This document shows positions 6,010-64,000 of a stretch of DNA of 64,000 nucleotides, piece after piece (positions within the stretch are counted from its first letter, which is position 1; each line of letters starts with the position of its first letter). The DNA comes from an uncultured virus (IMG/VR IMGVR_UViG_3300032331_003338) (taxonomy: Duplodnaviria; Heunggongvirae; Uroviricota; Caudoviricetes), in the IMG/VR virus record IMGVR_UViG_3300032331_003338. One strand, 5' to 3'. The notes under the pieces were generated by a model. The model did not search any database, had not been told where the DNA came from, and saw only the letters and a list, made by a program, of their open reading frames with translations. The translations under genes and the position numbers were made by a program.

Positions 6010-6030
6010 TAGAAAGAGGGGGTTACAAAT

Positions 6031-7230: not shown

Positions 7231-7493
7231 GCTGGGGAGAGATTGACTGGGGGTCAATCATGGCATCGTACGCAGATGCTTTTGGTTACACCCCAACGGA
7301 GTTTATGCAACTAACGCTCCCACAGCTGAACGCTTACGCAAAGTACGTTGAGAAGCGAGACGATCAAATGAAGAGCGAATCGAAATCAACCCCCGCAAAA
7401 AATAAGGCAAAGTTTGCTGATGGCAAGTCAGGGATGAAAACAATTCAATCCCTTGACCACCTGGCACAAGTATTTGGAAAGCCAGGAGCATAA
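7209..7493 (+). CDS. Frameshift extension of the tail chaperone (gpT analogue)
   Basis: GKSSGGVSWGEIDWGSIMASYADAFGYTPTEFMQLTLPQL, matching the G.TP.EF..LT..Q pattern. Confidence 0.8.
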   Translation, partial: GKSSGGVSWGEIDWGSIMASYADAFGYTPTEFMQLTLPQLNAYAKYVEKRDDQMKSESKSTPAKNKAKFADGKSGMKTIQSLDHLAQVFGKPGA

Positions 7494-7508
7494 CCGGGGG
7501 GAGCGCAC

Positions 7509-18308: not shown

Positions 18309-18309
18309 T

Positions 18310-26500: not shown

Positions 26501-27083
26501 TAGTCCGACATCCATTTCAACAGGCGCAATTACCTCTACCGGAACAATATCTGGCAGCATAGGATATTACGGCACCATGGGCGTTGATAACCTCACTGTT
26601 GGAGGAACTTCGACAAATTTTACAGTTACGAGTGGTGGGGCCGTAGATATGGATGGGTCAATAGATATTGGTGGCGTCATAAGAAGTGCTCCTACGCAAC
26701 ATACCGTTACTACTGGATATTATAACGCAGTATGGTACACGGCTGCTAGCGGAGGAACGCAACCATACGCATTGAGATACTACACGTCTTCATCAAGGTA
26801 TAAAACAGGAATTACCATCGTTGACGATGACATATTATCTAAATTTGATGCAATTGATGCTAAGCATTTTTATCGAAATGATGAAAATGGAAATCCGGGA
26901 ACATACTTGGAACTTGGATTTATTGCAGAAGATTTTAGCGATGCTGGACTATCATGTGCTGTAACCTATACTCCAGACGGCGCTGCAGACTCTCTCATGG
27001 AATTTCCGATTATTGCAGTTCTTTGGCACAAAGTTAAGCAGCTAGATAAAAGGATTGCAGAATTAGAAGGCAATGCCATCTAG
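23520..27083 (+). CDS. Tail fibre/spike with C-terminal intramolecular chaperone (peptidase S74-like)
   Basis: G/S/T-rich repeats; SSSRYK...LGFIAED...VKQLDKRIAELE C-terminus. Confidence 0.85.
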   Translation: MSEKITSALLQSPNGGLFSTLQVDGAGIVIKNASDDQRSDGTFVPAGSDTLVLSAVGESSFLNASYMKVGVLDASLLRTGLLQTVASWNSKWYGSAEDSMDVQQGFSGGKFAATSISTTTNSVTLSAVESPTGANHNITTGDYVRVSGLIFGDDTYGNVGVDSPGVGVKDYAEVTDHTSTSLTYELTGVGSGKTTLDPYALPFVSKVVPLVSISRVYDDEVTNENPGELSKVTVVTASAHGLSEGNYVELAGVEDSLNGVWRVSGAPDSTTFEFWQRFVEDIDWEDDGSISLPEYGAPVAIEVSKSYRVTSDGTLMAYGAVFNPAGTRRSAILLRGGGTQGDIAVPADETLQIGYRDGAGGLGGTFTSIMTINTPASGNQGATVINGSLTVDTLTATTINGGTGTGSVPDDITAHTITTTAGNIRIRPYENDGSTADKRGELEFYTQIASTGYYTSRVMLFSDKDYGNALVIDPDLKVLGDAQVVGDLTVSGALTAGSFSIGTLNATTVNASSGYYNYLDVGNVATKHAVIQPNGQLTVNDDTNSTSANTGAVVIKGGAYVAQDLRVAGSIYVSVFSPDSITMGVGNNIISQGYVSASAGYYGSMIVGTGVSSKMEVDVSGQVTLNNSTAATSVAGALYIPTGGIRALTGNIGTLTVTSTFSPASISISGGGGISVTGGGDIATTSSATANTMSATNGYYLNFAAGSTTKALIGLTGQLTVQNTATSTSKSGLGATGSVVVAGDISVAKKIWAADLDITGSLTGGFTLGAITPSSVVSSYGYYTSLNGTTLSIGSSTAATISAAGKVTIANTTAAVSTTSGALEVVGGVGITGNLHVGGSISGTITLPSTISASSGYYQTLGSTTLDVGSVATGTRVTIGSGGVLTVTNATQASSTGPVGSIVTSGGVYIAKDLVVGGSISGTITLPTSPTFTTVTATKLQASTGYYSGTLTGGAIEGDTLQIGGTTTNATISAAGAIAATSLSVSGTFSAGTFSPTSISTGAITSTGTISGSIGYYGTMGVDNLTVGGTSTNFTVTSGGAVDMDGSIDIGGVIRSAPTQHTVTTGYYNAVWYTAASGGTQPYALRYYTSSSRYKTGITIVDDDILSKFDAIDAKHFYRNDENGNPGTYLELGFIAEDFSDAGLSCAVTYTPDGAADSLMEFPIIAVLWHKVKQLDKRIAELEGNAI

Positions 27084-31279: not shown

Positions 31280-31354
31280 ATTTTTCTCCTATACTTTGAC
31301 TCACCGCACTTGCGGTTCGTGTCAAACCATACCACAAACCCTTGCTTCCAAATC

Positions 31355-31436
31355 CTACCCCCCCCCCCCGATAATGGCAGCAATCTCCTCTTCAGTCAAG
31401 CCGCGCAAGGATAAGATCCGCTTGACCTTTCGTCAT
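31355..31436 (-). pseudogene. Chimeric gene remnant
   Basis: MTKGQADLILARLD* joined out of frame to GLTEEEIAAIIGGGG*, which includes a G12 run. Confidence 0.5.
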
Positions 31437-40609: not shown

Positions 40610-41125
40610 ATGGCTAAACGTGGTCGCGTAGGGGCTGAACAGCTTGCCTCTCTCCGAGAGAAGATTAAGGGTCTGCATCTTCAGGGTGTTCCGACACTAG
40701 AAATTGCATCTGCCGTTGACCTCTCCCCAGAGACAGTTCGTAAGCATATCTACGCAATTAGAAAGCAATGGTCCGAAGAAGGGCCCGACTCAGCCGCCAG
40801 CAGGCTAGAGTTGATTCAGCGCGCCAATCTTATTGCCAAGATGGCTGCCGGCGGTGCCGCCAGGGCCAGGGGAACTAAGGATGAGGCAACGTTCCTCAAG
40901 CTTCAGCTAGAGGTTATCGATAGGATCGCTAAGCTTACGGGGTCGTATGCAAGCGAGCGACAGCCCGGCGACACAAATGTTGCAATACAAATAAATAATA
41001 CCGTTCACGAAATAGACCAGCTTGCACCGGAGGATCTAGCGGCGAGGCTGCAAATGTGGGCCTCTGAGATAGAGGGAAAGGCAGTACTCCTTGAGTCAAG
41101 CTCAGACGGTCAACCAGAGATATAG
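40610..41125 (+). CDS. terS: Terminase small subunit (HTH)
   Basis: EIASAVDLSPETVRKHI HTH and DRIAKLTG; overlaps terL. Confidence 0.7.
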   Translation: MAKRGRVGAEQLASLREKIKGLHLQGVPTLEIASAVDLSPETVRKHIYAIRKQWSEEGPDSAASRLELIQRANLIAKMAAGGAARARGTKDEATFLKLQLEVIDRIAKLTGSYASERQPGDTNVAIQINNTVHEIDQLAPEDLAARLQMWASEIEGKAVLLESSSDGQPEI

Positions 41126-42518
41126 GGACTGGCTCCGCGTTAAGGCCGCAACATCCGACGCTGCTTTCGCAGAGTATATAAGCGGACTTGTCTTCCCTAA
41201 GCACCTGAGAGAGATGGAAGCGTTTCTTGACGAGAATGACCGAGCGCTTGTGTTGATGCCTCGAGGTCACGCTAAGACCACCCAGCTCATACACAGGGCC
41301 GCTCGAGTTATTGGTGCAACTCACGGAAAAGTTCGCATTGGCATTTTGACTTCGGTAATGTCTGACGCCCTTGCTCGATCACGAGCGATAAAGACAATCA
41401 TTGAGTCCCCGCATTTTGCTGAGGTGTTTCCATGGGCGAGGGAGGGCGTTATCGGATCTAAGTGGACCGATGAGGTCTGGACGGTAAAGGGAGCGAACCT
41501 TGGCAAGGACTCCACGTGCTTTGCAGATGGTCTCGGCTCCATTAAGCCTGGAGCACGTCTTGACGTTCTATTCGCAGACGACCTTGTGGGCATGAAGGAA
41601 AACGCTACGGCCGTTCAGCGACAGAAGGCCAGCGAAACATACTGGCAGGTTGTGGACCCAATGCTTGTCCCTGGGGCAAAGCGCTGGTATATCGGCACTC
41701 GATGGCACGAAGATGACTTTTACGCCGAGCTCATGAGGAAAGAGGTTTCTTTCTATCAGCGAAGGGCAGTTGAAGGCGAAAATGTTCTTTGGCCAGAAAT
41801 GTACACCATGGCCGACATGGAGCAAAAAAAGATGGAGCTTGGAGGACCAATCTTCATGCTTCAGTTCCAAAACGACGTTACTTCGATGGGTGGAAACATT
41901 TTCCGCTACGAGTATTTCCAACGGGTTGATAGAGTTCCGGAGGGCGCCAGGAGAATCGGTGTCGACCTTGCGTCTTCCGCAAGCGAGCGCAGCGACTATA
42001 CCGCTGCGGTTGAGGTCCTGGAGGACGATCAACACAACCTATACATTATTGGCTGCTGGAAGGCGCGGCTACAAGAGGGCCATAAGGCCTGGCTTACTGG
42101 GATCGATAACAATAATGAAATGGTGCAAGACGCAGGGCCAAGAATGATGTGGCCGCAACGACTGCTTGGCCTAAAGGGCCTAGATACGGAGCTAGACTCT
42201 CCACGATTCTTTGAGTCGGTGAACATTGAGGCAGTTCAGCACCAGAGCACGTTTGTGCGTGAAATTCTTTCTACTACCAGGCTTCCGGCTCGACCTATTC
42301 GCCCCGACAGGGATAAGGTCACCAGGTCTAGGGCCCTTTCGGCAAGGTATGAGGCCGGGAAAGTGTTCCACGTTAACGGAGCCCCAGGCATTGAGGACCT
42401 AGAGTCTAATATGCTGGCGTTCCCAAACGGGACCCATGACGACCTGGTTGACGCTCTTGTGTATGCTGCCGACCTTGGTGGCGACGGGTTTTATTTCACC
42501 TCGGCAAAGAGGTACTAG
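41091..42518 (+). CDS. terL: Terminase large subunit
   Basis: Walker A PRGHAKTT, Walker B VLFADD, IGTRWHEDD, nuclease GVDLASS...DYTA and FPNG.HDDLVDA. Confidence 0.93.
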   Translation: MSQAQTVNQRYRDWLRVKAATSDAAFAEYISGLVFPKHLREMEAFLDENDRALVLMPRGHAKTTQLIHRAARVIGATHGKVRIGILTSVMSDALARSRAIKTIIESPHFAEVFPWAREGVIGSKWTDEVWTVKGANLGKDSTCFADGLGSIKPGARLDVLFADDLVGMKENATAVQRQKASETYWQVVDPMLVPGAKRWYIGTRWHEDDFYAELMRKEVSFYQRRAVEGENVLWPEMYTMADMEQKKMELGGPIFMLQFQNDVTSMGGNIFRYEYFQRVDRVPEGARRIGVDLASSASERSDYTAAVEVLEDDQHNLYIIGCWKARLQEGHKAWLTGIDNNNEMVQDAGPRMMWPQRLLGLKGLDTELDSPRFFESVNIEAVQHQSTFVREILSTTRLPARPIRPDRDKVTRSRALSARYEAGKVFHVNGAPGIEDLESNMLAFPNGTHDDLVDALVYAADLGGDGFYFTSAKRY

Positions 42519-49220: not shown

Positions 49221-49425
49221 TTTCACCTCCGGGACGGACAGCATACACCATTTTTTTGCGTGCGCCGCCCCCGGTTTTGGGGGAAGGGGGGGGAACCTTT
49301 AAGGAGGGGGGGGATGGGGGGCTCAGGAATCTGGGGATCTGGGCCAATATCTTGTTATTAGTTACATAGGTGGGGGCTGGTCAAATCATTACAAAAGCGT
49401 GCTCGCCGTTGCATTGTGCTTCAGG

Positions 49426-53623: not shown

Positions 53624-54004
53624 TTAATTGCTGCCCTCGACGCTTTCTACATATGGAATCTCAATAACTGGCGTCGAGCTATGATCGCCGCTATCTTTGC
53701 AGAAATATGATCGGCTGATCGTACCTCCGCCGGCATAGACATTGACATAAATGTATTCCCAGCCAACGGCATCAAACACCGTGTTGCATCCATCAATTGC
53801 TCCCTGCCAATAGGCGACATCGGTCGTGGCGACAACCGCTCGTTTCCAGCCATCGCGGCTGCCCTCAGCAAAGCCAGCTACATGCCCCTCGGAAAGACCA
53901 GAAGACACGCCAACCTGGTGGCCGAGCAATCCTGCCAATACGGCCGCCCCAAGCGCTGCAGCGACGAAATAGTTCTTTTGCTTTGACGTTATGTTCATCA
54001 TCAA
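53624..54004 (-). CDS. Membrane-anchored/exported hypothetical protein
   Basis: N-terminal TM, G...G...G periodic segment, AGGAGG SD. Confidence 0.65.
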   Translation of the reverse strand: MMMNITSKQKNYFVAAALGAAVLAGLLGHQVGVSSGLSEGHVAGFAEGSRDGWKRAVVATTDVAYWQGAIDGCNTVFDAVGWEYIYVNVYAGGGTISRSYFCKDSGDHSSTPVIEIPYVESVEGSN

Positions 54005-54008
54005 CCTC

Positions 54009-54422
54009 CTATAGCGACGTTAGGTGCACGCCGGTGTAGGCAGGCAAGTCGCCAACCTCAGGCTGCGTGTTTGTTTCATGCCACGTCCAATTCATTGCGC
54101 CAATGTCGTACCTGCCACAGCATGTGGTTGCGGATATGCGCAAAGGGGCATCGTCAACTTCTCTCCCACCGCCAAACATTACAATTTCCCGAGTGGCTGG
54201 GTCAAAGGACGCAATCTCTACCCCATCAACCCCATACTCTGAGGCGAGGAGGTGGCTATCCGCACATATCTTCATGGCCGTAGCAAAGTCAAAGGCTGGG
54301 CATGCCCATCCATTCCAGCGGTATCCGGTCCGCACTCTCGCTGGATACGCCGACATCACGCCTTCATCAATCCATACCGTTGCATCTACGCTTGCTGCTG
54401 GGTTGCAATAATCGCACGACAT
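54009..54422 (-). CDS. Conserved phage hypothetical protein
   Basis: WNGWACP.F...Y.IGA..WTW. Confidence 0.7.
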   Translation of the reverse strand: MSCDYCNPAASVDATVWIDEGVMSAYPARVRTGYRWNGWACPAFDFATAMKICADSHLLASEYGVDGVEIASFDPATREIVMFGGGREVDDAPLRISATTCCGRYDIGAMNWTWHETNTQPEVGDLPAYTGVHLTSL

Positions 54423-54434
54423 AACTACCCCTTC

Positions 54435-54635
54435 CTACTCAGTCTCTTCATTATATTCTTGAGCCATAAGCCCAAGGCTTGGAACGCTAAACCGATACGC
54501 CGTCTTGCTACGCGGCCGATGCTCTTCTCGGCAGGTCTCACATACCATGCCACCAAGTGGATGCCATGCGAGCTCGCCATGCTTCGCATTATTCGGACAT
54601 GTCGCCCGAGGATCAGTTCCGCGCTTCTTTGCCAT
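54435..54635 (-). CDS. Small Zn-binding protein
   Basis: C....H...CETC. Confidence 0.55.
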   Translation of the reverse strand: MAKKRGTDPRATCPNNAKHGELAWHPLGGMVCETCREEHRPRSKTAYRFSVPSLGLMAQEYNEETE

Positions 54636-54852
54636 GCTTATCCATCTCTTCTAGGATTCCGGCAATCATCTTATCTCCGGCATCCCGTGCTTCTGCTGCA
54701 ATTTCCTGATACGAGCTGTCAATGAAATGTTCGGCCTGCTCAATCGTCCAGTCAGGCTTTACCCTCAAGATGTCTGGCACGCCCCACTTCACCACAATAG
54801 AAACAATCTGCAGCTCTTCTCGGATTTCGTCGTCGGTCATTTCCGGGCTCAT
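54613..54852 (-). CDS. Hypothetical protein
   Basis: W...DI...PDWT.EQA..F pattern. Confidence 0.65.
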   Translation of the reverse strand: MSPEMTDDEIREELQIVSIVVKWGVPDILRVKPDWTIEQAEHFIDSSYQEIAAEARDAGDKMIAGILEEMDKHGKEARN

Positions 54853-55109
54853 TGTAGGTCAACCCAAAACTTACGGCAGGATTCGGCCAAGCTGCATGCT
54901 CCTGGGTCATGTTGAACTGGAGTAGAGACCCACTCGCCACAGTCTTCGCATGACTCGCCACACTCAGACATATCATCAGTGTCAAAGATTGGCATGACGT
55001 GGTTACCCTCTTTGTCCAGCACCATCTCGTCGAGCTTATGGAATCTAACCCCGGCACACGATATGCAGTGGATTCCCGCTTCGTAGGTATACCCTATGAC
55101 ATGCATCAC
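54849..55109 (-). CDS. Small Cys-rich protein
   Basis: GYTYEA..HC..C...D.EGN...PIF...C..CG; AGGAGG SD. Confidence 0.7.
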   Translation of the reverse strand: MMHVIGYTYEAGIHCISCAGVRFHKLDEMVLDKEGNHVMPIFDTDDMSECGESCEDCGEWVSTPVQHDPGACSLAESCRKFWVDLQ

Positions 55110-55145
55110 TACCTCCTACTATCAGCGGGAATGCCCCGCCGTTGC

Positions 55146-55174
55146 ATCATACGACCAGAGTATTAGATTGTCAA
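55146..55174 (-). promoter_or_regulatory. Sigma70-type promoter plus leader hairpin (55125-55139)
   Basis: TTGACA-17-TATGAT. Confidence 0.8.
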
Positions 55175-55506
55175 CCTACTTTTATCGCAGCCTGCATATC
55201 CTTGACGGCCGCCCGTATCTCATGAATTCGATAGTGCTGCTCAGAGCTTGCCTCACTTCGGCCATCAAGGTACGACTTGATGCCATCTGCTACAGCGCGC
55301 TTGCTGGCATACCCGATATGAGGGAGCACATCCCTGACTCCTCCGCCCTCACTGATGATCTGGACAAGCTTCTGTCCGCCGTATGCCCCCATCAGGTAGT
55401 AGCACCCAACCTCAGGGTAGACACGTTTCAACTCAGGGTCTCCGGCGTGGTTGAGCAAACGGATAAGCTGTTCAAGCTCCGATTTGGTCGTTTGTCTTGT
55501 GGTCAC
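55171..55506 (-). CDS. Conserved phage early-type protein
   Basis: Y.L.GAYGG.KL......GG..D...GY..KR; AAGGAG SD before GTG. Confidence 0.7.
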   Translation of the reverse strand: MTTRQTTKSELEQLIRLLNHAGDPELKRVYPEVGCYYLMGAYGGQKLVQIISEGGGVRDVLPHIGYASKRAVADGIKSYLDGRSEASSEQHYRIHEIRAAVKDMQAAIKVG

Positions 55507-55637
55507 GCAGATACTCCTTCTCTCGCTTATTGACACAGGCATCGCACAGCGTTGCGGTTGTGCCGTTGGGGTCTAGCCATACTGCTCTGGCAACATCCAT
55601 ACAGTCTAGGCACTTCAGCGCGGTCTTCGGGTTTGCC

Positions 55638-55844
55638 TTACTTCGAATGACGAGTGGCTGCAATTTCTGCCCTCCTTCGCTTCTCATATGCCAACTTGCG
55701 CGCATGCTGCGCTTCCGTCATTGGCTTCCTCGGAGAGCGGAACTCCATCTCACACGCAATGCACTTGAGGCTTCCTGGCTTGCGGTAGAACTCCGTATCC
55801 GCCGGCCAGTTCTTCTGGCACACCCTACATTTCTTCCTTGCCAT
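55638..55844 (-). CDS. Small Zn-finger basic protein, paralog of 28219-28467
   Basis: CRVC..WPADTEFYR...CIACE; AAGGAG SD. Confidence 0.7.
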   Translation of the reverse strand: MARKKCRVCQKNWPADTEFYRKPGSLKCIACEMEFRSPRKPMTEAQHARKLAYEKRRRAEIAATRHSK

Positions 55845-55901
55845 CAACACTCCTTCCTTGGTGCAGGGTGACTGGGGTACACCGATCACCCTGCATGGAT
55901 G

Positions 55902-55930
55902 ATACTAGGGCATGAGAATCGGGCTGTCAA
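55902..55930 (-). promoter_or_regulatory. Sigma70-type promoter plus leader hairpin (55862-55895)
   Basis: TTGACA-17-TAGTAT; stem TGCAGGGTGA/TCACCCTGCA. Confidence 0.8.
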
Positions 55931-56568
55931 TCTTTTGGCTTTGGCTCATAGTTCCAGGAGTCCTGATCGCCAAGCTTCCATCTTCCTGTCTCGGCAGCAA
56001 ACTCCTTGGTGCTGACCTTAAAGTCGGGCAGCTTTGGCTCCTTTGCCACAAGGGCCTCATCAAGCCAGAGCACCCTGTTGTTTGGCTGCGCGGCAAATTG
56101 TCCGTTGTCTAGCCGGATGAAGTTATAAGATTTATGTTCGGAGGGGACACGCGCCCAGTTCGCATCGATCTCATTGGGGTCGGTATGAACCATGTCAACG
56201 GTAAATAGGTAGTGCCCCTCACTCCATGTTCCCGTTGGGGTTCGAAACTTACAGCGCATGTTCTTTAGCACGGCCTTCTCAATCACGCTGAGCTGCGGGG
56301 AGATCGCGTCCCAAAGCTGTAGGTCGCCAAGCTTAAGGTCTGGGCTTGGGGTTTGCGGCTTCCAGACAAAGGCGCTGATTGGCAGTTTGTCATAGAGCGC
56401 GCCATACTCAGGCAGGAACGCCTCAATGTAGAGGGCGCGGTGACGGATTGCCTTGACCGTAACCCAGTAGGCAGGAGTAAACTCCCCGTGCCCATCCTGC
56501 AAGTCCCGCAGGTACTCCTTGCGTACATAGCAGGAGATCGGTGGAATGTTGGCGATTGCATAAGACAT
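55927..56568 (-). CDS. Conserved phage hypothetical protein
   Basis: ANIPP...VRKEYL.D...HGE...LPISAF...LQLWD...YLFT.D...EHK...L.NGQFAAQPNNR. Confidence 0.8.
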   Translation of the reverse strand: MSYAIANIPPISCYVRKEYLRDLQDGHGEFTPAYWVTVKAIRHRALYIEAFLPEYGALYDKLPISAFVWKPQTPSPDLKLGDLQLWDAISPQLSVIEKAVLKNMRCKFRTPTGTWSEGHYLFTVDMVHTDPNEIDANWARVPSEHKSYNFIRLDNGQFAAQPNNRVLWLDEALVAKEPKLPDFKVSTKEFAAETGRWKLGDQDSWNYEPKPKD

Positions 56569-57296
56569 GACTCACCCCTTTCGTGCTGAAGATTACCATA
56601 GGCTATCCCGCCAGCGAGCCCGAGGCTAGGCCCGAAGACTCGTGAGAGGCTGAGTCGTGAGAGAGGGGTCGTGGTGCCGTGAGGCAGGCGCCGTACAAGC
56701 ACCATAGAGAAAGAAAGAAACTAAGAGAGAGCAGTAGAGACCAATACATTCGATCATGGGTGGCTCATGGCTGCTCTGGGGACGTGCTTACTCCTTCTGT
56801 TCTTTTCTATCTCTCTCTGCCTCTATCTCTCCTTCTTTCACCTCCGGGCGTGACTCCGGGGATATGACCAGCTATGACCAGGGGTGGGTATTTATTTTGC
56901 TGAGTTATGAGATTGTGGTGAAAGGGGGATTTGATCGGGGAAGATACTATGTGGGTGGTGGGTTTTTGGTCATCCGAACATCGGGGGCACGCGGACACCG
57001 TTTTAACCTTCCACCAGAACCCATCAATACCCACTTATCCACACTTCTCCAAGATTGTTGACAAATCACCACAAACCTTATTCCAGCCAGTTATTCGAGT
57101 TATTCATCCCAGTTATTCAGACATTATTACGCTAGTATTAAGATTCCCTAACACTGCCAATGTCCGTGCGCACAGACACCCCTACCATGCCTCAACCCCG
57201 TGCGATACCCCGGGGGAGTATTGCCCTACTTGACGATGTGATACCCATACCTTATGGTGGTGCTGCGCCACTTGGCGTGCTGTAGTAGGAGGCTGT
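56569..57296. other. Large non-coding divergence region
   Basis: No credible ORF; purine and pyrimidine tracts and short repeats; genes diverge on both sides. Confidence 0.65.
57230..57292 (+). promoter_or_regulatory. Promoter / ACTT hairpin / SD cassette 1
   Basis: TTGACG-17-TATGGT; GCGCC-ACTT-GGCGT; AGGAGG. Confidence 0.75.
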
Positions 57297-57404
57297 ATGG
57301 CAATAGGTATAGCGAAGTGCCTAGAGTGTGGCCGGGTGTTCGATCTCACGATTGAAGCTGAGGCGAACGAATGGTTCCATGGCCATGATTGTGAGGGTGA
57401 GTAG
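57297..57404 (+). CDS. 35-aa Zn-binding microprotein
   Basis: MAIGIAKCLECGRVFDLTIEAEANEWFHGHDCEGE; AGGAGG SD. Confidence 0.7.
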   Translation: MAIGIAKCLECGRVFDLTIEAEANEWFHGHDCEGE

Positions 57405-57405
57405 G

Positions 57406-57567
57406 ATGGCGAATCCAGAGGACGATGGGTATGAGCCCTGTGCTAACTGCGGAGATGAGTGGAGCGAGACCTTAGGGGATAGCGGCCAGTCTCTCTGTGA
57501 GCAGTGCTTTAATACATGGAAGTGCGGCTGTACAACCGGCTGTGAAAGTTGTAGGGAGGATGAGTAG
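57406..57567 (+). CDS. Small Cys-rich protein
   Basis: CANC, CEQC, CGC, CESC. Confidence 0.6.
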   Translation: MANPEDDGYEPCANCGDEWSETLGDSGQSLCEQCFNTWKCGCTTGCESCREDE

Positions 57568-57847
57568 CATGTATCTCCATGAGGAATGCCCAGCTCCAGG
57601 GGGGCGTAATAACGATGGGATCGTTGAGGGTATCTACCTTAGCGGCTCGATCAGCGCATCCTTTAATCCCGTAGGCCGCACCTTCGAATGGGATGGCGAC
57701 GGCAATGGTGGGTACTCGGTGGACTCAATCGTCTGCCTTGATTGCGACGCAACTCTGTGGCAGGATGAGGACTTCGGAACGAACTTGACGCGAGTCCAGA
57801 ATGGCTTGCTTCAGGGGCGGTATCCGTCAGTAGTATGGAAGGAGTAG
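57560..57847 (+). CDS. Hypothetical Zn-binding protein
   Basis: HEEC...CLDC; GGAGG SD (start at 57560 or 57569). Confidence 0.6.
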   Translation: MSSMYLHEECPAPGGRNNDGIVEGIYLSGSISASFNPVGRTFEWDGDGNGGYSVDSIVCLDCDATLWQDEDFGTNLTRVQNGLLQGRYPSVVWKE

Positions 57848-57849
57848 AC

Positions 57850-58116
57850 ATGGCAGACGGACAACGCTATAGCAATGGAATGCTTGAGGGGTTTCTCAAT
57901 GGCAGGGCGCAGTTGGCAATGGGGTACATCCATGATCACCTCAAGGGGACTGCCGTGCTGACGAAGAAGGAGCTAGCCGCATGGCAGGATGCCGTGGCGC
58001 ATGCTAGTGATGCCCTGAGCGAGTACCAAGAGAACGGAGACTCCGAGAAGGTCAAGGAGCTTACCGGCTTGATGATGGATGCGACAGACAAGGCGATCTC
58101 CCTCCGCAACGCCTAG
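57850..58116 (+). CDS. Hypothetical helical protein
   Basis: GGAG SD before ATG 57850. Confidence 0.65.
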   Translation: MADGQRYSNGMLEGFLNGRAQLAMGYIHDHLKGTAVLTKKELAAWQDAVAHASDALSEYQENGDSEKVKELTGLMMDATDKAISLRNA

Positions 58117-58220
58117 TATTGTGTTGTGGTATCATGCGACAATAGGAAGGGGTAGGTATGGGTGGCTTTTGGTTTTGGGTAATGTTTTTCATTGTGGCAG
58201 GATGGTTTTTTTAGGAGGGT

Positions 58221-58505
58221 ATGATGAATAAACCTTGGACTTCAGAGCAGCACGCAACATGGATCAAGGAGCGTCAACGGCTTGGTGGCTTGGCTGCCGA
58301 GTCGCACTACATCAACACTGAGATGATTGAGCCGTTGATTGGCGCAACCATCGTTGATGCGTGGCTTGAGGTTAATACCGATACCGAGATGCTTGTTCCG
58401 GTATTTAAGATCAAGCATGCGAGCGGCAGGACATTCGTCTTTGGCGTATGGGCTGACGATGAGCAAAATAACGGCGGCAAGATTCTGTTCGCCGACATCG
58501 ACTAG
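58221..58505 (+). CDS. Conserved hypothetical protein
   Basis: L.GATI...P......D.E.N.GG pattern; AGGAGG SD. Confidence 0.7.
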   Translation: MMNKPWTSEQHATWIKERQRLGGLAAESHYINTEMIEPLIGATIVDAWLEVNTDTEMLVPVFKIKHASGRTFVFGVWADDEQNNGGKILFADID

Positions 58506-58513
58506 GAGGCGTC

Positions 58514-58708
58514 ATGAAGTACACGGTAAAGGTTCAGTACCCGCTCTATCTCGATGTTGAGATTGAAGCGGACAGCGTACCGGAAGCTCGTGCCGAGGCC
58601 ATGAAGATTGCTGAGGCCACACCGATTAAGGAGTGGGACGCCTATTCAGTCCCAGAAGTATTTGAGACGGAGTGGACAGACGAGAGTGGTCTGAACACCG
58701 TCATTTAG
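58514..58708 (+). CDS. Small acidic protein
   Basis: KY.V.V.....VEIEADS..EA...A; AGGAGG SD. Confidence 0.7.
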   Translation: MKYTVKVQYPLYLDVEIEADSVPEARAEAMKIAEATPIKEWDAYSVPEVFETEWTDESGLNTVI

Positions 58709-58716
58709 GAGGGATC

Positions 58717-58938
58717 ATGGGAAACACTACTCGACGACTCAGGAAGGACGCAAGAAAGTCGGCGAAGGCCAGGGGCCATCAGCTCGGCAAGTTCAGTCCT
58801 CTCTCTGGCTCGGGATGGAACATCAGTTCTTATTCATTATGCGTTGTGTGTGGGCGCGAAGCGGCAGTTTCCCCCACGCCCCCACCGAACGGGATCGACA
58901 TTTCCGGTGAGGCCGTAGCACTCAACTGCGGTGATTGA
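58717..58938 (+). CDS. Small basic Zn-binding protein
   Basis: RGH.L...C..CG...GEA.ALNC; AGGAGG SD. Confidence 0.65.
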   Translation: MGNTTRRLRKDARKSAKARGHQLGKFSPLSGSGWNISSYSLCVVCGREAAVSPTPPPNGIDISGEAVALNCGD

Positions 58939-58998
58939 CAGGATGATACTTACCTACTAGCATTGTGTAGCGGGGACTTCCCGCGCAGTTGTAGGAGG
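58935..58998 (+). promoter_or_regulatory. Promoter / ACTT hairpin / SD cassette 2
   Basis: TTGACA-17-TAGCAT; GCGGGG-ACTT-CCCGC; AGGAGG. Confidence 0.8.
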
Positions 58999-59003
58999 AA
59001 CAG

Positions 59004-59558
59004 ATGGACGACAGCGTTCTCAAGCTGAATGGCTATCGCGCACGCATCGAGGTAGACGAGGATTTCGACTCGGAGATGCTCGGCGACAGGATGGGGAAGT
59101 TCTATACAGGGCGTAAGGCCGCTGATCATGGCTTCCCTTCTGATGTCGTACTCTATGAGAATAGCGGCGGCATCACGCAGTTCGATAGCAGCGAGTTCTT
59201 GTATTGCTCGCCGGTGTACGGCTTCTCGCATTCGGGGCTTGCGATCAGCTTGACTCCGTTCAGTGATCCGTGGGACTCAGCGCAGATCGGCTACTACGCC
59301 GTAAGCAACTCAGAGGCCGAGGCATGGTTCGGTAAGGACTATGTTCGAGCGCAGGCTGAGGCTCAGGCAGAGGCAGAAGTCGCCGAGATCAATGAAGTGC
59401 TTCGTGGCCATGTCTACTATGTCGTGATTGAGAAGCAGTCCGATTGTGGTGCTGCTAGCCATCCTGACTTCGAGTTGGTTGATTCGATTGGCGGCTTGGT
59501 TGGATACCAACATGCCTTTGACGAGGCGCACGGACTTCTCCAGGCGGCGGCATCATGA
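59004..59558 (+). CDS. Conserved phage hypothetical protein
   Basis: PVY...HSG..IS..PF.DPWDS.Q.G...DS.GG..G. Confidence 0.75.
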   Translation: MDDSVLKLNGYRARIEVDEDFDSEMLGDRMGKFYTGRKAADHGFPSDVVLYENSGGITQFDSSEFLYCSPVYGFSHSGLAISLTPFSDPWDSAQIGYYAVSNSEAEAWFGKDYVRAQAEAQAEAEVAEINEVLRGHVYYVVIEKQSDCGAASHPDFELVDSIGGLVGYQHAFDEAHGLLQAAAS

Positions 59559-59824
59559 GCGGCCAGTTGGATGCGTGCTTTGCCTGTAAGGATGTTCTGT
59601 TCTACCCAGACGAGAAGGTCATTGGGACTTGGAACGGCGAGCCGAACACGCGCTTTGATGTTCTGGACTTTGATGAGCATAGCGGTGCGTACGAAGCTAG
59701 CCAAGAGATTCCGGACGACTATCTCGTCTATTGCCTGAACTGCGCGCCGTGCGAGTGTGGCGACCATGAACGCTTTGCCCCACACCGAGCTGTGGAGATT
59801 GACAAGCAGAACAATACCCCCTAG
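59555..59824 (+). CDS. Small Cys-rich protein
   Basis: CFAC, CLNC; ATGA coupling. Confidence 0.6.
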   Translation: MSGQLDACFACKDVLFYPDEKVIGTWNGEPNTRFDVLDFDEHSGAYEASQEIPDDYLVYCLNCAPCECGDHERFAPHRAVEIDKQNNTP

Positions 59825-59861
59825 CATCATAGATGCCGCACTTGCGGTACATAGCAGGAGG
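59799..59861 (+). promoter_or_regulatory. Promoter / ACTT hairpin / SD cassette 3
   Basis: TTGACA-17-TAGCAT; TGCCGC-ACTT-GCGGTA; AGGAGG. Confidence 0.8.
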
Positions 59862-59863
59862 AA

Positions 59864-60259
59864 GTGATGACGAACAAGTGGGAACTGATTCACGATGAGG
59901 AACTATCACCAGACAGGACGCTGGCGGTCTATCTAAGTCGCTACGAGAGCGGCGACTCAAGGATCGTCTTTGAGAGCAACATTCAGGGGCTTCGCATTAG
60001 ATACTATGCGTTCGCTCAGGATGCCATCGAAGACACCTGTCCGCTGGCCGACATCTGCTATGGAGAGAATAGCCTTCGATGGGAAGCTCACGAGCAGGAT
60101 GCGTTCATGGATTTGGTGTGCGACTTTATCCCTGTTGATGGCCCGATCACATGCGCTCATGACGGAACATGCGAAGAGCGATTCCATGAGGCGCAGGTAG
60201 CACTTGAGAATGAGGAGAAGGACGACTGCGCTTCATGCCAGAAGCTGGTGGTGTCGTGA
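59864..60259 (+). CDS. Hypothetical protein
   Basis: 131 aa, AGGAGG SD. Confidence 0.7.
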   Translation: MMTNKWELIHDEELSPDRTLAVYLSRYESGDSRIVFESNIQGLRIRYYAFAQDAIEDTCPLADICYGENSLRWEAHEQDAFMDLVCDFIPVDGPITCAHDGTCEERFHEAQVALENEEKDDCASCQKLVVS

Positions 60260-60432
60260 TGACCAAGCCATACATGATCGTCCTGAGAATAGACATTGAC
60301 GAACGAGCAGACCATCCACTAAACTGGGACTGGACAAGCCTATTGGACTTGCCTAACAGCGGCGGGGTTCAGGTTCTCGTCGCCCAAGAAATCACTGACC
60401 TGAACGATAAGGAGGAGAACGACAATGCCTAA
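60259..60432 (+). CDS. Small hypothetical protein
   Basis: HP..WDW..LLD; TGATG coupling. Confidence 0.6.
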   Translation: MTKPYMIVLRIDIDERADHPLNWDWTSLLDLPNSGGVQVLVAQEITDLNDKEENDNA

Positions 60433-61219
60433 CTGGTGCGTGAACAAACTAAACATCACCGGCAATACAAAGGACATTGCGGCCTTGATCAAGCAGGTAG
60501 CAGGAACGGACGGCAATGAAGATCAGAGAATCTTGGACTTCTCCAAGATCGTGCCGCCTCCGACCAGCAAGTTCTACGCAATCAACGAAGGCCAGAATGA
60601 TTTCCAATGCGGCTGTAAGAAGGAGTTCATCACCACGAAGGTCGCTGAGGGCGAGCCGTTTACCGAAGGCTTTGTTTCGCACGAAGGATACTGGGCGGTG
60701 AACGGCGTGGCGGTTGAGAAGATGATTCTTGGCAACGGCACAATCAAGGACGAAGTTGGAGCTGCCTTCGGTGGGGTTGAGGTGTGCCCAGAGCATAAGG
60801 TTCCGCAGAACTCATCGCACCCTGACTGGTGGTACAACTGGAATGTTGCCAACTGGGGTACGAAGTGGAATGCGAGTGGGCCACACTTGGAGCGCGTGAA
60901 GAACACGCACATCACCTATCACTTTGATACGGCATGGGCTCCTCCTACAAATGTTGTTGAGGCGTTGGCTGAGCAGTATCCAACCTTGTCGTTTGAGTTC
61001 TCTTGCTGTGAGGGCGGCATGGGCTTTGCTGGGCGGCTCATCTACACTGGCGGCACGCTGCTCTCCGACGAGACCTACGATGCGACAGACCTCCCAGATG
61101 ATGCGTGGCTCACCGACGATGATGGCCATAGGTCGTACGAGCGGGACTATGATAAGGTTCCAGCAACCGCGTTCGAGCGGTTCTGTGAAGAAGAGTTTGG
61201 CGGAGTAGTAGGAGGCTAA
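60425..61219 (+). CDS. DUF1281/YubB ferredoxin-like (Api92-like) protein
   Basis: MPNWC.N.L.I.G, DF.KIVP.P, WY.WN..NWGTKW, FDTAW.PP. Confidence 0.8.
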   Translation: MPNWCVNKLNITGNTKDIAALIKQVAGTDGNEDQRILDFSKIVPPPTSKFYAINEGQNDFQCGCKKEFITTKVAEGEPFTEGFVSHEGYWAVNGVAVEKMILGNGTIKDEVGAAFGGVEVCPEHKVPQNSSHPDWWYNWNVANWGTKWNASGPHLERVKNTHITYHFDTAWAPPTNVVEALAEQYPTLSFEFSCCEGGMGFAGRLIYTGGTLLSDETYDATDLPDDAWLTDDDGHRSYERDYDKVPATAFERFCEEEFGGVVGG

Positions 61220-61584
61220 TGATGGCAGAGGCAGCGTTTAGGGATTACATCGACGGCAATACCATTGACGACATTGTTGCTGCTGGGGAGACCTTCGTCT
61301 ACGGAGAGGTGTACCCGAAGCTCTCTGGCGTGATCGCTCGCAATGGGCTCTATGAAGCACTGGCCGGCTCATCGGAGGGCTTCGAGGATGAGTCCATAGA
61401 CATCTTCATGAACGGAGATGCGTTCCGCTCGCATGAGCGACACGGCAACATTGTAATTGGCTGGGTGGAAGGAATGCGCGGAGCGAACATTGCCATCTTC
61501 GGATACGACGAGGCCGCGAAGGAATACATCGACGAGCTTCGGAAGAGCGCAGAAGAAGCTGGGATAACCTACTTCGAAGACTAG
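61219..61584 (+). CDS. Acidic hypothetical protein
   Basis: 121 aa, AGGAGG SD. Confidence 0.65.
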   Translation: MMAEAAFRDYIDGNTIDDIVAAGETFVYGEVYPKLSGVIARNGLYEALAGSSEGFEDESIDIFMNGDAFRSHERHGNIVIGWVEGMRGANIAIFGYDEAAKEYIDELRKSAEEAGITYFED

Positions 61585-61862
61585 TTCGCTAGGCCTGATC
61601 CGGGAATAACCTCTGGCATGTCTTCTGGGTCGGGAGACTCAAACCCCTCTGGGGTGTTGATCCAACGCACGCTGAACTCTATGTCTTCTGCCTCGGTGTC
61701 GTACTGCTCTGCGTCCCGGCCAATGGCCGCTAGGACTGCTATTGGGTTGAGGGCGATCTCGTAGAACCCAGCACTCGAAGTAATGTGCCAAGTATTAGGT
61801 TGTCCAGGTCTATAGACAACGAAGTATTCCATGAGTGGATTGTCCCCCGCACCCCAACACAT
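61581..61862 (-). CDS. Acidic hypothetical protein, antisense to neighbours
   Basis: Fills the gap between + strand genes; start uncertain (61862 or 61832). Confidence 0.55.
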   Translation of the reverse strand: MCWGAGDNPLMEYFVVYRPGQPNTWHITSSAGFYEIALNPIAVLAAIGRDAEQYDTEAEDIEFSVRWINTPEGFESPDPEDMPEVIPGSGLAN

Positions 61863-61885
61863 CACCATAGTCTAGTGATCTGCTG

Positions 61886-61914
61886 TTGACGCAGCGATCT
61901 CGTTCGCTTACAAT
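61886..61914 (+). promoter_or_regulatory. Sigma70-type promoter
   Basis: TTGACG-17-TACAAT; leader hairpin AGCTGGG/CCCAGTT. Confidence 0.75.
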
Positions 61915-61961
61915 CGTGGTACGAGCTGGGCGTTTCCCAGTTGTGGTTAGGAAGGATTAGT

Positions 61962-62414
61962 ATGGAAACGGTTCGTAATCAGGAGATGTACAATGAGTAC
62001 TTCTCCGGACAAACACTTCAGGAAGTAGCTGATAAGTACAACTTGACTCGTCAACGAGTTCAGCAAATCGTCAAGAAGATGGGGCCATCTCGTCCCCGCG
62101 TTTCGAACGGCGGTCGACATCGTAAGTTTGATTACAAGGTCATCGCTCAGTATGTGGAAGAGAACAAGTCGACGGTTCATGCGACGGCCAATCACTTTGG
62201 CTGCTCTATTACCACCATCATGAATGCTCTGTATGCCGAAGGAATCGAGCCGACCAAGAAGCAGAGGTTTACCTCGCTGGTCGTTCAGGACATCGTGACC
62301 CGCTATCTTGCCGGCGAAAAGCTTCGCGTCATCGGCGAGTCATACAATACAAGTGCTCAGTACATCAACACTGTGCTGCGCCGTGCCGGAGCTGTTGCCA
62401 AGCGTCGTAAGTAA
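61962..62414 (+). CDS. Triple-HTH DNA-binding protein
   Basis: TLQEVADKYNLTRQRVQQI, TVHATANHFGCSITTI, LRVIGESYNTSAQYI. Confidence 0.8.
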   Translation: METVRNQEMYNEYFSGQTLQEVADKYNLTRQRVQQIVKKMGPSRPRVSNGGRHRKFDYKVIAQYVEENKSTVHATANHFGCSITTIMNALYAEGIEPTKKQRFTSLVVQDIVTRYLAGEKLRVIGESYNTSAQYINTVLRRAGAVAKRRK

Positions 62415-62684
62415 ATGGAAGAGCAGCAGAAGCCACTCATCACTGCGGAAGACGCTAAGGCCTTTACGAAGTATCGCAAGGCCTATGAGCGGCATGCTGG
62501 GTATTGTCGCAGGGTTCGTCAGTACGCGAGAATGAATCGGGCGTTTCTTCTCAGTGCTGGATGGCTAGACTGGGCGTTCGAAGAAGCCGGTAAGCCGTTC
62601 ATTTACGAAAGTCGATTGCCAGTGTGGACAGAGGAGCAGCTCTTTGCCCTCCAATCTGAGTACGACAGGAAGCAACAGAGATGA
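62415..62684 (+). CDS. Hypothetical protein
   Basis: 89 aa, abuts the HTH gene. Confidence 0.6.
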   Translation: MEEQQKPLITAEDAKAFTKYRKAYERHAGYCRRVRQYARMNRAFLLSAGWLDWAFEEAGKPFIYESRLPVWTEEQLFALQSEYDRKQQR

Positions 62685-62694
62685 AAATAGGGGC

Positions 62695-62762
62695 TTGACA
62701 GGCCGTCGGCGGGGCTGCTAGTGTGGCCTTGCCGATACTTGTCGGTAGGAAGTGTTAGGAGG
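62695..62762 (+). promoter_or_regulatory. Promoter / ACTT hairpin / SD cassette 4
   Basis: TTGACA-18-TAGTGT; CTTGCCGAT-ACTT-GTCGGTAGG; AGGAGG. Confidence 0.75.
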
Positions 62763-62766
62763 AAGT

Positions 62767-63216
62767 ATGGGATACGACATCTTTTCGCTGCTGCCCAATC
62801 GTGAGGCTGCGGCCGAGCACGCCAAGAAGTATCGCTCAATGTGGATTGAGCCAGACGGCTCGTATGCTGAGAAGGCTCCCGATACGCTCTATTTCCGGCT
62901 GAACATTTGGGGTATGCCAATGCTCCGAGAGTTCCACGAGGCTATCGGATTCGATGAAGTCAATGAGTGCCTCTACGACAATAGCGGCGATGTCATCAAG
63001 AGCTACCAGTGCCGAGGCCTATCAGAAATGATTGCCAAGATGAGCGACGATGAGATCATTGCCGAAATGAGCGTCATCATCAAGGGGAACGCATACGCCT
63101 CCGACGCAGACAAGGCTGACCCTTCCGAGGAGGCCAAGAGTTGGCTAGGCCTTATCCGAGAGTGGCAAGACTTCCTTGCTGCGTGCGCCGAACTGAAAGG
63201 GTGCGAAGTCCTATGA
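62767..63216 (+). CDS. Conserved phage hypothetical protein
   Basis: MGYD...YFR.NIW.M...N.G..I...C...FL..C..G pattern. Confidence 0.75.
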   Translation: MGYDIFSLLPNREAAAEHAKKYRSMWIEPDGSYAEKAPDTLYFRLNIWGMPMLREFHEAIGFDEVNECLYDNSGDVIKSYQCRGLSEMIAKMSDDEIIAEMSVIIKGNAYASDADKADPSEEAKSWLGLIREWQDFLAACAELKGCEVL

Positions 63217-63299
63217 TCGAAGTATTCTGGGGCGCAATCATCGGGCTGTGCCTATTGACGCTATCATTAGTTAGCGAGCGTAAGGAGGAGGAAGTATGA
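63213..63299 (+). CDS. 28-aa membrane peptide
   Basis: MIEVFWGAIIGLCLLTLSLVSERKEEEV; ATGA overlaps at both ends. Confidence 0.6.
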   Translation: MIEVFWGAIIGLCLLTLSLVSERKEEEV

Positions 63300-63565
63300 G
63301 GGACTTGACTATCACCTATCACCGAGACCCCGGCCACGGATGGTTTGAGGTCAAGCGTGAGCTGCTGGCCACGCTAGGGATTCAGCATCTCATCACTACA
63401 TTCTCGTTTGAGAAAGGTGATCGAGTATTCCTAGAAGAAGATCAGGACGCTGGCGTATTGGTGCGCTCGCTTGGGGAGCTTGGTATCAAGTACTCCACCG
63501 TGCCGCTCCACACCGATAACGACCATTGGATTAGGGGGCTTGACCGATACCAATACAAGCCCTAA
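63296..63565 (+). CDS. Conserved phage hypothetical protein
   Basis: DPGHGW..V...L..LGI...I...S....V.LEED.DA. Confidence 0.75.
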   Translation: MRDLTITYHRDPGHGWFEVKRELLATLGIQHLITTFSFEKGDRVFLEEDQDAGVLVRSLGELGIKYSTVPLHTDNDHWIRGLDRYQYKP

Positions 63566-63603
63566 GATTGCTTTGCGGCACTTGCCGTAGGGGAATAAGG
63601 AGG
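63540..63603 (+). promoter_or_regulatory. Promoter / ACTT hairpin / SD cassette 5
   Basis: TTGACC-17-TAAGAT; CTTTGCGGC-ACTT-GCCGTAGGG; AGGAGG. Confidence 0.8.
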
Positions 63604-63608
63604 AAGCT

Positions 63609-63779
63609 ATGGATGAAGTATGGGGCAAGGAGGATGGCTACTGCGCTTGGTGCGTAGATACCCTCATCATCGGGCAACCGATCTGGGAGTATGGCGTAGA
63701 CTCTCAGGGGGATAGCGTCAAGTACGCTTGCTGTACCAAGTGCGCAGCAGATAGAGAAGTAGAGGAGGAAGCTAGATGA
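63609..63779 (+). CDS. Small Zn-binding protein (56 aa, not in ORF track)
   Basis: MDEVWGKEDGYCAWC...CCTKC; AGGAGG SD. Confidence 0.65.
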   Translation: MDEVWGKEDGYCAWCVDTLIIGQPIWEYGVDSQGDSVKYACCTKCAADREVEEEAR

Positions 63780-64000
63780 GAAAGTACATTGACTTCTGGG
63801 ATAACCTAGACGACTTGTTGCTTCGACTTCATACCGACACGGAGGCCTATGTGATGGGGCCAGAGAAGCTTGGCCGGTGGTGCTGTAATACTTGTTCTGG
63901 TGCGGAGATCAGCTTGATGGCTGAATCCGATAATGTTAGCGATCCTATTATGTTTTACTATCACGACCAGAATAGGGACGACGACGTAGACGAGTGCCAT
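63776..64000 (+). CDS. Hypothetical protein, 3' truncated
   Basis: MRKYIDFW...WCCNTC...FYYHDQ; GAGGAGG SD; open to the window end. Confidence 0.65.
   Translation, partial: MRKYIDFWDNLDDLLLRLHTDTEAYVMGPEKLGRWCCNTCSGAEISLMAESDNVSDPIMFYYHDQNRDDDVDECH

Follow-up and report, generated by a model that had tools for sequence, protein, structure and literature searches.

We describe here a repeated leader cassette in the DNA of an uncultured tailed phage (Caudoviricetes; IMG/VR record IMGVR_UViG_3300032331_003338), of which a stretch of 64 000 nt, called the window throughout, was analysed. Each cassette joins a sigma70-type promoter to a short GC-rich hairpin, a strong Shine–Dalgarno (SD) sequence and a start codon. 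Comparison with relatives of the phage demonstrates that the stems are held paired in the sense strand by compensatory changes, that the hairpin is coupled to the promoter, that the cassettes keep to a single block in each genome, and that their loops follow a rule which sets them apart from terminator hairpins. We suggest, at roughly even confidence and from sequence comparison, that the element is a 5'-terminal RNA hairpin on early transcripts of the host RNA polymerase (RNAP), and that it would protect the 5' ends of these messages.

Five cassettes of one design in the window

All five cassettes listed in an initial annotation of the window were re-derived from the sequence at the same positions. 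They lie on the + strand and share the order TTGAC(A/G/C), 17 or 18 nt, TAnnnT, 6 nt, hairpin, AGGAGG and ATG, with a GC-rich core stem of 5–6 bp enclosing ACTT, with AGGAGG 12–16 nt past ACTT and with ATG 4–5 nt past AGGAGG. In the covariance-model scan proposed in that annotation, a model of the whole cassette (R1; built from 104 rows, mean column identity 49%) recovered the five sites with E-values of 2e-10 to 7e-7, and the corresponding blocks of the relatives too. Its next-best match in the window is a leftward cassette at 55105–55177, and no others fall below E 0.02.

Cassette 1 (57230..57299) has its −35 element, TTGACG, at 57230–57235 and, after 17 nt, its −10 element, TATGGT, at 57253–57258; the stem GCGCC (57265–57269)/GGCGT (57274–57278) with the loop ACTT (57270–57273) is found in the minimum free energy (MFE) fold (−8.9 kcal/mol), and AGGAGG (57287–57292) precedes ATG 57297 of a 35-aa open reading frame (ORF) (R1, 51.6 bits, E 3.3e-10). 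Cassette 2 (58935..59006) consists of TTGACA (58935–58940), 17 nt, TAGCAT (58958–58963), a hairpin, AGGAGG (58993–58998) and ATG 59004, which opens a 184-aa ORF (36.7 bits, E 7.2e-7). The stem GCGGGG/CCCGC around ACTT first proposed for this site has to be corrected, contiguous pairing of that kind being impossible; RNAfold gives GCGGG (58970–58974)/CCCGC (58980–58984) around the pentaloop GACTT (58975–58979), within which ACTT occupies 58976–58979. In cassette 3 (59799..59869), TTGACA (59799–59804), 17 nt and TAGCAT (59822–59827) are followed by TGCCGC (59834–59839)/GCGGTA (59844–59849) around ACTT (59840–59843), evident from both sequence and fold, and by AGGAGG (59856–59861) and ATG 59867 (43 bits, E 2.8e-8); a strain variant of this site in public run X5 has the loop GCTT.

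Cassette 4 (62695..62769) is the copy with an 18-nt spacer, between TTGACA (62695–62700) and TAGTGT (62719–62724); sequence and fold agree on the core GCCGAT (62731–62736)/GTCGGT (62741–62746) around ACTT (62737–62740), with AGGAGG at 62757–62762 and ATG at 62767 (52.4 bits, E 2.2e-10), and its orthologues in relatives (the MGYDI group) have different stems. Cassette 5 (63540..63611) runs from TTGACC (63540–63545) through 17 nt and TAAGAT (63563–63568) to the core GCGGC (63575–63579)/GCCGT (63584–63588) around ACTT (63580–63583), again from sequence and fold, then AGGAGG (63598–63603) and ATG 63609 (48.3 bits, E 1.8e-9). At sites 4 and 5 the stems can be drawn with 9 bp, the outermost three to four pairs being partly G-T; these outer pairs precede the predicted +1, so that a stem of 5–6 bp is likely in the RNA there as well.

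In all five leaders, MFE or centroid folding leaves the SD unpaired. Among the 227 occurrences of ACTT on the + strand of the window, only 11 have at least four flanking pairs, and all four with at least six fall in 57.2–63.6 kb. A pairing of the ACTT loop with AAGT past the SD was considered and rejected: by eye it is available at only two of the five window sites, and it is absent in most relatives.

Stem and loop rules across relatives

The comparison covers 32 sources of the lineage, namely the window, L001, L002, L011, L014 and L081–L107. Relatives were drawn from IMG/VR via two protein anchors, a 213-aa protein and a 264-aa DUF1281_C-like protein, the motif not being consulted. One of them, L081, is approximately the same phage as the window (collinear, DNA identity 92–97%), and the others have 47–63% identity in the 264-aa protein.

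These sources contain 371 matches to TTGAC-N17–19-TAnnnT, among them 221 unique units with an SD-like string 20–50 nt past the −10 element. With the hairpin register picked by Watson–Crick pairs alone and loop identity ignored, 152 of these 221 promoter-plus-SD units have at least four of five Watson–Crick pairs around a 4-nt loop that starts 9–14 nt past −10; shuffling of the first 32 nt (300 trials) yields 20 on average and 30 at most. The loop offset is 11 or 12 in 135 of the 152, and the loop ends in TT in 138, against a chance expectation of about 1 in 16. RNAfold, likewise, places a hairpin of −3 kcal/mol or better within the first 30 nt in 218 of the 221 units, with 158 tetraloops (143 TT-ending) and 33 pentaloops (16 TT-ending). 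The ACTT loop had been described as invariant, with conservation in relatives as a test; what is conserved is its 3' half, the 152 loops comprising ACTT (59), GCTT (43), AGTT (19) and GATT (7) as the main forms. The loop rule is thus R-S-T-T, with ACTT merely its commonest member and only the 3' TT fixed.

The proposal that stems vary yet stay paired is borne out. There are 38 distinct 5' arms among 159 registered units, and these units, pre-selected for TT at loop positions 3–4 and for at least three of five Watson–Crick pairs, supplied the rows of an ungapped alignment (A1) of 125 distinct 24-nt hairpin segments. In A1, 91.5% of cells are paired, against 50.7% with partners shuffled (0/500 shuffles equal the observed value) and 42–53% with the partner slid; double changes occur at all six pairs, and the covariation score is 0.919 versus 0.229. 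Orthologous genes give the same picture: the MPNWC gene is preceded by six stems across relatives, all paired (e.g. ACTCC/GGAGT, GCGGG/CCCGC, CAGGG/CCCTG and GTGGC/GCCAT), and seven paired stem versions precede the orthologues of the MGYDI gene.

The strand in which the fold forms can be judged from the imperfect pairs. In the WC-only register the inner five pairs comprise 699 Watson–Crick, 58 G·U, 3 A·C and 35 other combinations, and ACTT, GCTT and AGTT together account for 121 loops, against 3 for their reverse complements AAGT, AAGC and AACT. Because G·U far exceeds A·C and reverse-complement loops are rare, we place the fold in the transcribed sense, as RNA or as non-template DNA; judged from these counts, it is not formed in the template strand, nor is it a double-stranded palindrome. 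Wobble bias, paired cells and the turnover of stems between orthologues agree that pairing in the sense strand is maintained by selection.

Coupling to the promoter and position at the predicted +1

Loops start 11, 12 or 13 nt past −10 in 61, 86 and 12, respectively, of the 159 registered units, and hairpins 5–8 nt past it; the distance from loop to SD (5–28 nt) is looser than that to the promoter. The seventh nucleotide past −10 is a purine in 129/159 units and the sixth a pyrimidine in 92/159, a pyrimidine at −1 and a purine at +1 being the usual preference at transcription starts. Counted from that seventh nucleotide, the 5-bp core stem begins after 0, 1 or 2 nt in 61, 86 and 12 units, and the hairpin would therefore, by prediction, sit 0–2 nt from the 5' end of the transcript. 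Purines make up 74% of the 12 nt that follow the stem, in the manner of an SD spacer. Conversely, nearly all hairpins with an xxTT loop and an SD behind them have at least a −10 element at the proper distance.

The same positional data bear on the idea that the hairpin acts on transcription itself, which we consider improbable. A hairpin in the non-template DNA, or one in the nascent RNA within the exit channel, might alter promoter escape, sigma release or promoter-proximal pausing, or confer put- or nut-like resistance to termination. Such an action would explain why the position is fixed to −10 (11–13 nt) and much looser to the SD; 58 G·T against 3 A·C pairs suit non-template DNA equally; and promoters occur in the window's early block, with terminator-like sites at chance (10 at 50–64 kb versus 10.7 expected, i.e. 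no excess). In a block without terminators, however, antitermination has little to do. A hairpin that opens at the predicted +1 leaves no room for a transcribed boxA ahead of it; its loop is not of the GNRA-like pentaloop type; hairpins of 5–6 bp are far below the size of put RNA; and high GC content in the initially transcribed region would be expected, if it had any effect, to impede escape.

It is very unlikely, and already disfavoured, that the hairpins are N4-type promoters, that is, DNA hairpins used by a phage RNAP that begins transcription some 11 nt 3' of the loop. Short hairpins of 5–7 bp with special loops do characterize the N4 early promoters (PMC4496689), and the window encodes a 3599-aa ORF of about the size of the N4 virion RNAP. 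That ORF, however, has ParB-like and sub-threshold TMP_3 matches, and no RNAP match was found in PHROGs or Pfam for it or for the ORFs of 1737 and 1187 aa, in the 64 kb examined and with the proviso that very divergent RNAPs could escape such a search. Further, N4 hairpins use the template strand, whereas wobble is tolerated here only in the sense strand, near-consensus −35 and −10 elements at canonical spacing stand ahead of every hairpin, and no conserved bases were found 3' of the stem, where an N4-type +1 would fall.

Context specificity and confinement to one block

A census of distinct hairpins with a 4-nt loop, a stem of 5 bp or more and three or more GC pairs, taken over the window and L081–L107, shows how closely the loop rule follows the cassette. 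Loops of the form xxTT occur in 75/78 hairpins in the strict promoter-plus-SD context (65/75 with a looser promoter definition), in 0/53 terminator-like hairpins, of which 17 have TTCG, and in 188/2827 of the remainder, about the 1/16 expected.

In the window the cassettes belong to a run of small genes on the + strand from ~57.2 kb to the window end, facing a leftward run that begins at ~56.57 kb; in 19 small ORFs of these divergent runs, no Pfam family was matched (0/19, E up to 0.01). Five relatives of 81–91 kb, four estimated to be 100% complete and one 92%, three of them with terminal repeats, allow whole genomes to be surveyed. They contain 18, 16, 16, 10 and 12 R1 matches (E up to 0.01; total 72), of which 69 fall within one 10.5–16.6 kb block per genome, in nearly uniform orientation; two of the three outlying matches sit in the terminal repeats of one genome (G004). 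Parts of these blocks went into the training of R1, and what this result teaches therefore lies in the silence of the other 60+ kb of each genome. The initial annotation had proposed a phage-wide leader at +1. The cassettes do lie at the predicted +1 of sigma70-type promoters, in an early-looking block of small ORFans; with 69 of 72 matches in one 10–17 kb block of 81–91 kb, the element is to be called early-block-wide, not phage-wide.

The block is also plastic. The gene for the 264-aa protein (60425–61219) has its own cassette in relatives, with ACTCC-ACTT-GGAGT in L001, AGTCC-GCTT-GGAC in L002 and GCGGG-GCTT-CCCGC in L084, and in the window (60296–60430) no cassette separates it from the upstream ORF, to which it is joined; cassettes are therefore gained and lost independently of genes. 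A 56-aa ORF (63609–63779) is missing from the near-identical L081 (compared at 13164–13190), and the indel concerned, 63616–63752, lies between two copies of the 12-nt AGGAGGAAGCTA (63598–63609 and 63763–63774), which suggests that this ORF may have been gained or lost through recombination between repeated ribosome-site strings. A second indel between the window and L081 spans a 64-aa ORF (58514–58708).

Considering such changes, the cassettes might be thought of as modules for the gain, loss and swapping of small genes by recombination, with a hairpin that has no RNA function of its own. Small ORFans are indeed flanked by cassettes, the 264-aa orthologue has a cassette in relatives and none in the window, and the first indel is bounded by copies of AGGAGGAAGCTA. 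We nevertheless regard this as highly improbable: with 38 distinct arms the hairpins offer almost no homology, the indel examined used a repeated SD string and not the hairpin, and compensatory change together with the 58:3 wobble asymmetry points to selection for pairing on one strand, which shuffling of genes leaves unexplained.

Two distant relatives, L108 (e.g. 1852–11950, + strand) and L109, have 38% identity in the 264-aa protein. They have a hairpin 7 nt past the −10 of TTGACA-17-TAnnnT promoters as well, with a conserved stem, GAGGGG/CCCCTC, and the loops AAGTG, AAGTT or AGATG.

A proposed 5'-terminal hairpin on early transcripts

The reading that we favour, to which we give about an even chance, is that the cassette is an early promoter for host RNAP with the primary sigma factor (sigma70/sigmaA-type), whose transcript would open, within 0–2 nt, with a GC-rich hairpin of 5–6 bp and a 4–5 nt loop ending in UU, followed by a purine-rich spacer, a strong SD and the start codon. 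A paired 5' end would deprive RNase J, RNase E and RppH-type enzymes of the single-stranded end that they require, the ribosome site would be left open, and early messages might thus persist and be translated efficiently from the opening minutes of infection on. On read-through transcripts from upstream promoters, the hairpin could insulate each ribosome site. The 5'-terminal stem-loops of the ompA, papA and aprE leaders block 5'-end-dependent decay and stabilize their mRNAs, and 0–2 unpaired nucleotides with an open, strong SD are the geometry that protection of a 5' end requires. Transcription start, a fold in RNA rather than in non-template DNA, expression early in infection and the stabilizing effect are the parts of this reading that we infer.

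Several points weigh against it. A hairpin in the non-template DNA strand would fit the same data. The folding energies of the five leaders are ordinary (z −0.99 to +0.52 against dinucleotide shuffles), and the case therefore stands on comparison, not on thermodynamics. The near-invariant UU (138/152) is unexplained by stabilization alone: we know of no 5' stabilizer hairpin that requires a particular loop, and to our knowledge none of the cassette loop sequences is an extra-stable tetraloop. Finally, the sole lead on the host, to Chloroflexota, is weak.

This lead comes from two Chloroflexota metagenome-assembled genomes (MAGs) with contigs that carry relatives (50–59% identity) of the window terminase. 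In one of them, G008, contigs C3, C31 and C57 each bear a terminase relative (52–56% identity), perhaps because several related prophages are present or because phage contigs were binned with the MAG. Searches of both MAGs with the cassette model and with the 264-aa protein gave no match, and the lead is weak because the GC content of a sampled MAG contig is 0.70, against 0.52–0.54 here. RNase J was above cut-off in both MAGs, and RNase E/G, looked for in both, was not found; this is a weak pointer to the nucleases of the host.

Since UU on the 3' side of the loop exceeds the needs of stabilization, it may be the sign of a factor that reads the loop. The hairpin could be an RNA operator, a possibility that we rate clearly lower than protection yet take seriously: a phage or host RNA-binding protein would recognize the UU-ending loop on a generic stem and control the whole early regulon, for example by shutting off translation or stability at the onset of middle or late expression, or by marking early messages as 'self' while host mRNAs are degraded. 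A role as stabilizer would be compatible with this. A variable stem with a constrained loop resembles the hairpins read by proteins in other phages (the MS2/PP7 coat operators, lambda boxB and the T4 gp43 operator); the R-S-U-U rule holds in 138/152 tetraloop units and is avoided by terminator hairpins of the same genomes (0/53), and 16 of the 33 pentaloops likewise end in UU; the 10–18 copies per genome all lie in the early block; and L108 and L109 keep a hairpin at +1 under another rule, as expected of co-evolution with a lineage-specific reader. On the other hand, no candidate binder emerged from the small early ORFs (Pfam matches 0/19), the sole annotated regulator nearby is a DNA-binding Sigma70_r4/Mor-like protein, the distance between hairpin and SD (5–28 nt) is loose and not ideal for a translational operator, and the tight coupling is to the promoter and not to the start codon. 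More tentatively still, these sequence patterns might mean that the UU tetraloop, set on a blunt 5'-terminal hairpin, is a dedicated mark of the early regulon, read on all 10–18 early transcripts by one RNA-binding protein encoded by the phage or hijacked from the host; it would set phage messages apart from those of the host, for selective protection while host mRNA is shut off or for a timed, collective shut-off; the AAGTG/AAGTT rule of the sister lineage would then reflect co-evolution of tag and reader.

Comparison with known systems

The leaders of ompA and papA in Escherichia coli and of aprE in Bacillus subtilis, the last consisting of a 5' stem-loop plus ribosome-binding site, resemble the transcripts predicted for the cassettes, with a small hairpin at or near the mRNA 5' end and a strong ribosome site left open behind it. 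They are, however, single cellular leaders with no known loop rule, whereas the cassettes occur in 10–18 copies per phage genome, end their loops in UU in 138/152 units and turn over their stems freely.

Phage operators provide a second comparison. Those of boxB (lambda/P22 N), MS2/PP7 and gp43/RegA share with the cassettes a coordinated phage control in which a generic stem of 5–7 bp presents a specific loop. The nut boxB, MS2/PP7 coat and T4 gp43 operators occur once or twice per genome, and RegA sites are unstructured; the loops read by proteins are GNRA-like pentaloops or ANYA, and nut sites come with boxA and downstream terminators. Unlike the nut and MS2/PP7 operators, the cassettes have 10–18 copies, a UU-ending tetraloop and no boxA, and terminators do not exceed chance around them.

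Comparable in organization are the PeSL cassettes of the T4-type phages RB49/phi1, PST/T4 and nt-1/KVP40, which have a stem-loop just upstream of the promoter with a role as terminator and a relatively conserved stem (G-run/C-run), their repeats serving homologous recombination (PMC2839356, PMC4122927). Common to both are a repeated sigma70-like early promoter, a stem-loop, an SD and a start codon among small ORFans in plastic regions, where neighbouring gene content varies between close relatives. Unlike in PeSLs, the hairpin of the cassettes lies downstream of −10 at the predicted +1, lacks a T-run and has diverse stems with a conserved loop, and the cassettes offer no conserved repeat for recombination (38 arms, mean column identity 49%). 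The three N4 promoters (PMC4496689) carry a template-strand DNA hairpin centred at −11, are used by the virion RNAP and have no −35/−10 elements; they share with the cassettes short GC-rich hairpins with a constrained loop, a link to early transcription and non-conserved stem bases that are free as long as they pair. In the cassettes, by contrast, −35 and −10 elements (spaced by 16–18 nt, a selection criterion) precede the hairpin, which lies 3' of the predicted +1 and folds in the sense strand.

No description of phage early cassettes with a hairpin at +1 and a UU-ending loop was found in the literature searched, and an Rfam scan of 54000–64000 (both strands, E up to 1) gave 0 matches. The statement that no motif of this form had been described thus needs qualification: within the literature searched it holds for the geometry and the loop rule, but repeated early-promoter/stem-loop cassettes such as PeSLs, and 5'-terminal stabilizer hairpins, are kinds already described. 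What distinguishes these cassettes is that stems free to vary are joined to an R-S-U-U loop, in an uncultured lineage.

Further hairpins and neighbouring features in the window

Promoters at 55174, 55930 and 61886 had been noted to have leader hairpins with other loops, and we find the same, the loops being GCATT, one of 14 nt, and CGTTT. The first belongs to the leftward cassette of the same design (55105..55177, − strand), which has TTGACA-17-TATGAT, a hairpin for which RNAfold gives GCGGG/CCCGC with the pentaloop GCATT, also TT-ending, AGGAGG and a start codon (30.5 bits, E 1.8e-5). At the leftward promoter 55930 (55846..55933, − strand; TTGACA-17-TAGTAT; 14.6 bits, E 0.065), a 10-bp stem TGCAGGGTGA/TCACCCTGCA with the 14-nt loop stands 6 nt past −10, followed by GGAG and a start codon; this hairpin is placed as in the cassettes, but is of another kind. 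The third, at 61883..61965 on the + strand, is a variant cassette with TTGACG-17-TACAAT (16.6 bits, E 0.022), a fold of AGCTGGG (61924–61930)/CCCAGTT (61936–61942) around the TT-ending pentaloop CGTTT, and, by sequence, a weak SD (AGGAAGG) before ATG 61962. The 150-aa protein that starts there (61962–62414, + strand) has matches to Sigma70_r4 (E 1.1e-8), HTH_28 and Mor (E 5.5e-8), and is a candidate activator of later promoters.

A further hairpin, ACCGC-ACTT-GCGGT at 31308, was rejected as a cassette: it is only a partial R1 match (E 0.86), with no SD behind it on the + strand. Its surroundings (31295–31370) include flanking TTGAC/GTCAA arms and a run of ~12 C at ~31359–31370, with small minus-strand genes around; read on the − strand, it has an AAGT loop and stands ahead of TAGGAG and ATG, before a small gene. 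At 49260–49330, in homopolymer-rich intergenic DNA, long G runs (AAGGGGGGGGAACC...GGAGGGGGGGG) come after a hairpin CCCCCG-GTTT-TGGGGG.

The leftward and rightward gene runs are divided by a gene-free region of 660 bp (56570–57230), which contains purine and pyrimidine tracts, a palindrome (57161–57178) and direct repeats, TTATTC..CCAGTTATTC occurring twice at 57078–57118 and TCTATCTCTC also twice; two public runs have an extra 13-nt unit behind 57108. Elsewhere, the consecutive giant ORFs of 3599, 1737 and 1187 aa occupy 7509–27083 on the + strand. The first has a ddrB-like ParB domain at residues 158–255 and a TMP_3 tape-measure match at residues 1478–1626 (32.7 bits, under the Pfam cut-off of 41 bits), the C-terminus of the third is a Peptidase_S74 chaperone domain, and no PHROG matches were found for the 3599-aa and 1737-aa ORFs.

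Lineage and implications

The window is phage DNA: it encodes a large terminase (41091–42518) and has head, tail and exonuclease PHROG matches. Its GC content is 0.47–0.55. Megablast of 56900–64000 against 50 697 deposited phage records returned zero matches, and the closest cultured match of the terminase is only 26% identical (tblastn), which leaves the phage without a cultured relative. Public runs with words in common with the stretch bear the labels freshwater, lake or wastewater metagenome.

Finally, considering what the cassette may mean for these phages, we suggest that, if our interpretation is true, an uncultured lineage from freshwater and wastewater gives every early operon a minimal, portable expression module consisting of a consensus promoter, a 5' hairpin of 14–16 nt and a strong SD. 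The rules of the module can be read with unusual clarity from natural variation alone (any GC stem of 5–6 bp, an R-S-U-U loop and a hairpin at the predicted +1), and the loop rule sets a sharp, testable puzzle: why UU? If the interpretation is correct, the lineage would amount to a natural experiment on what a protective hairpin at the 5' terminus needs, and the cassette would provide a compact part for expression design.

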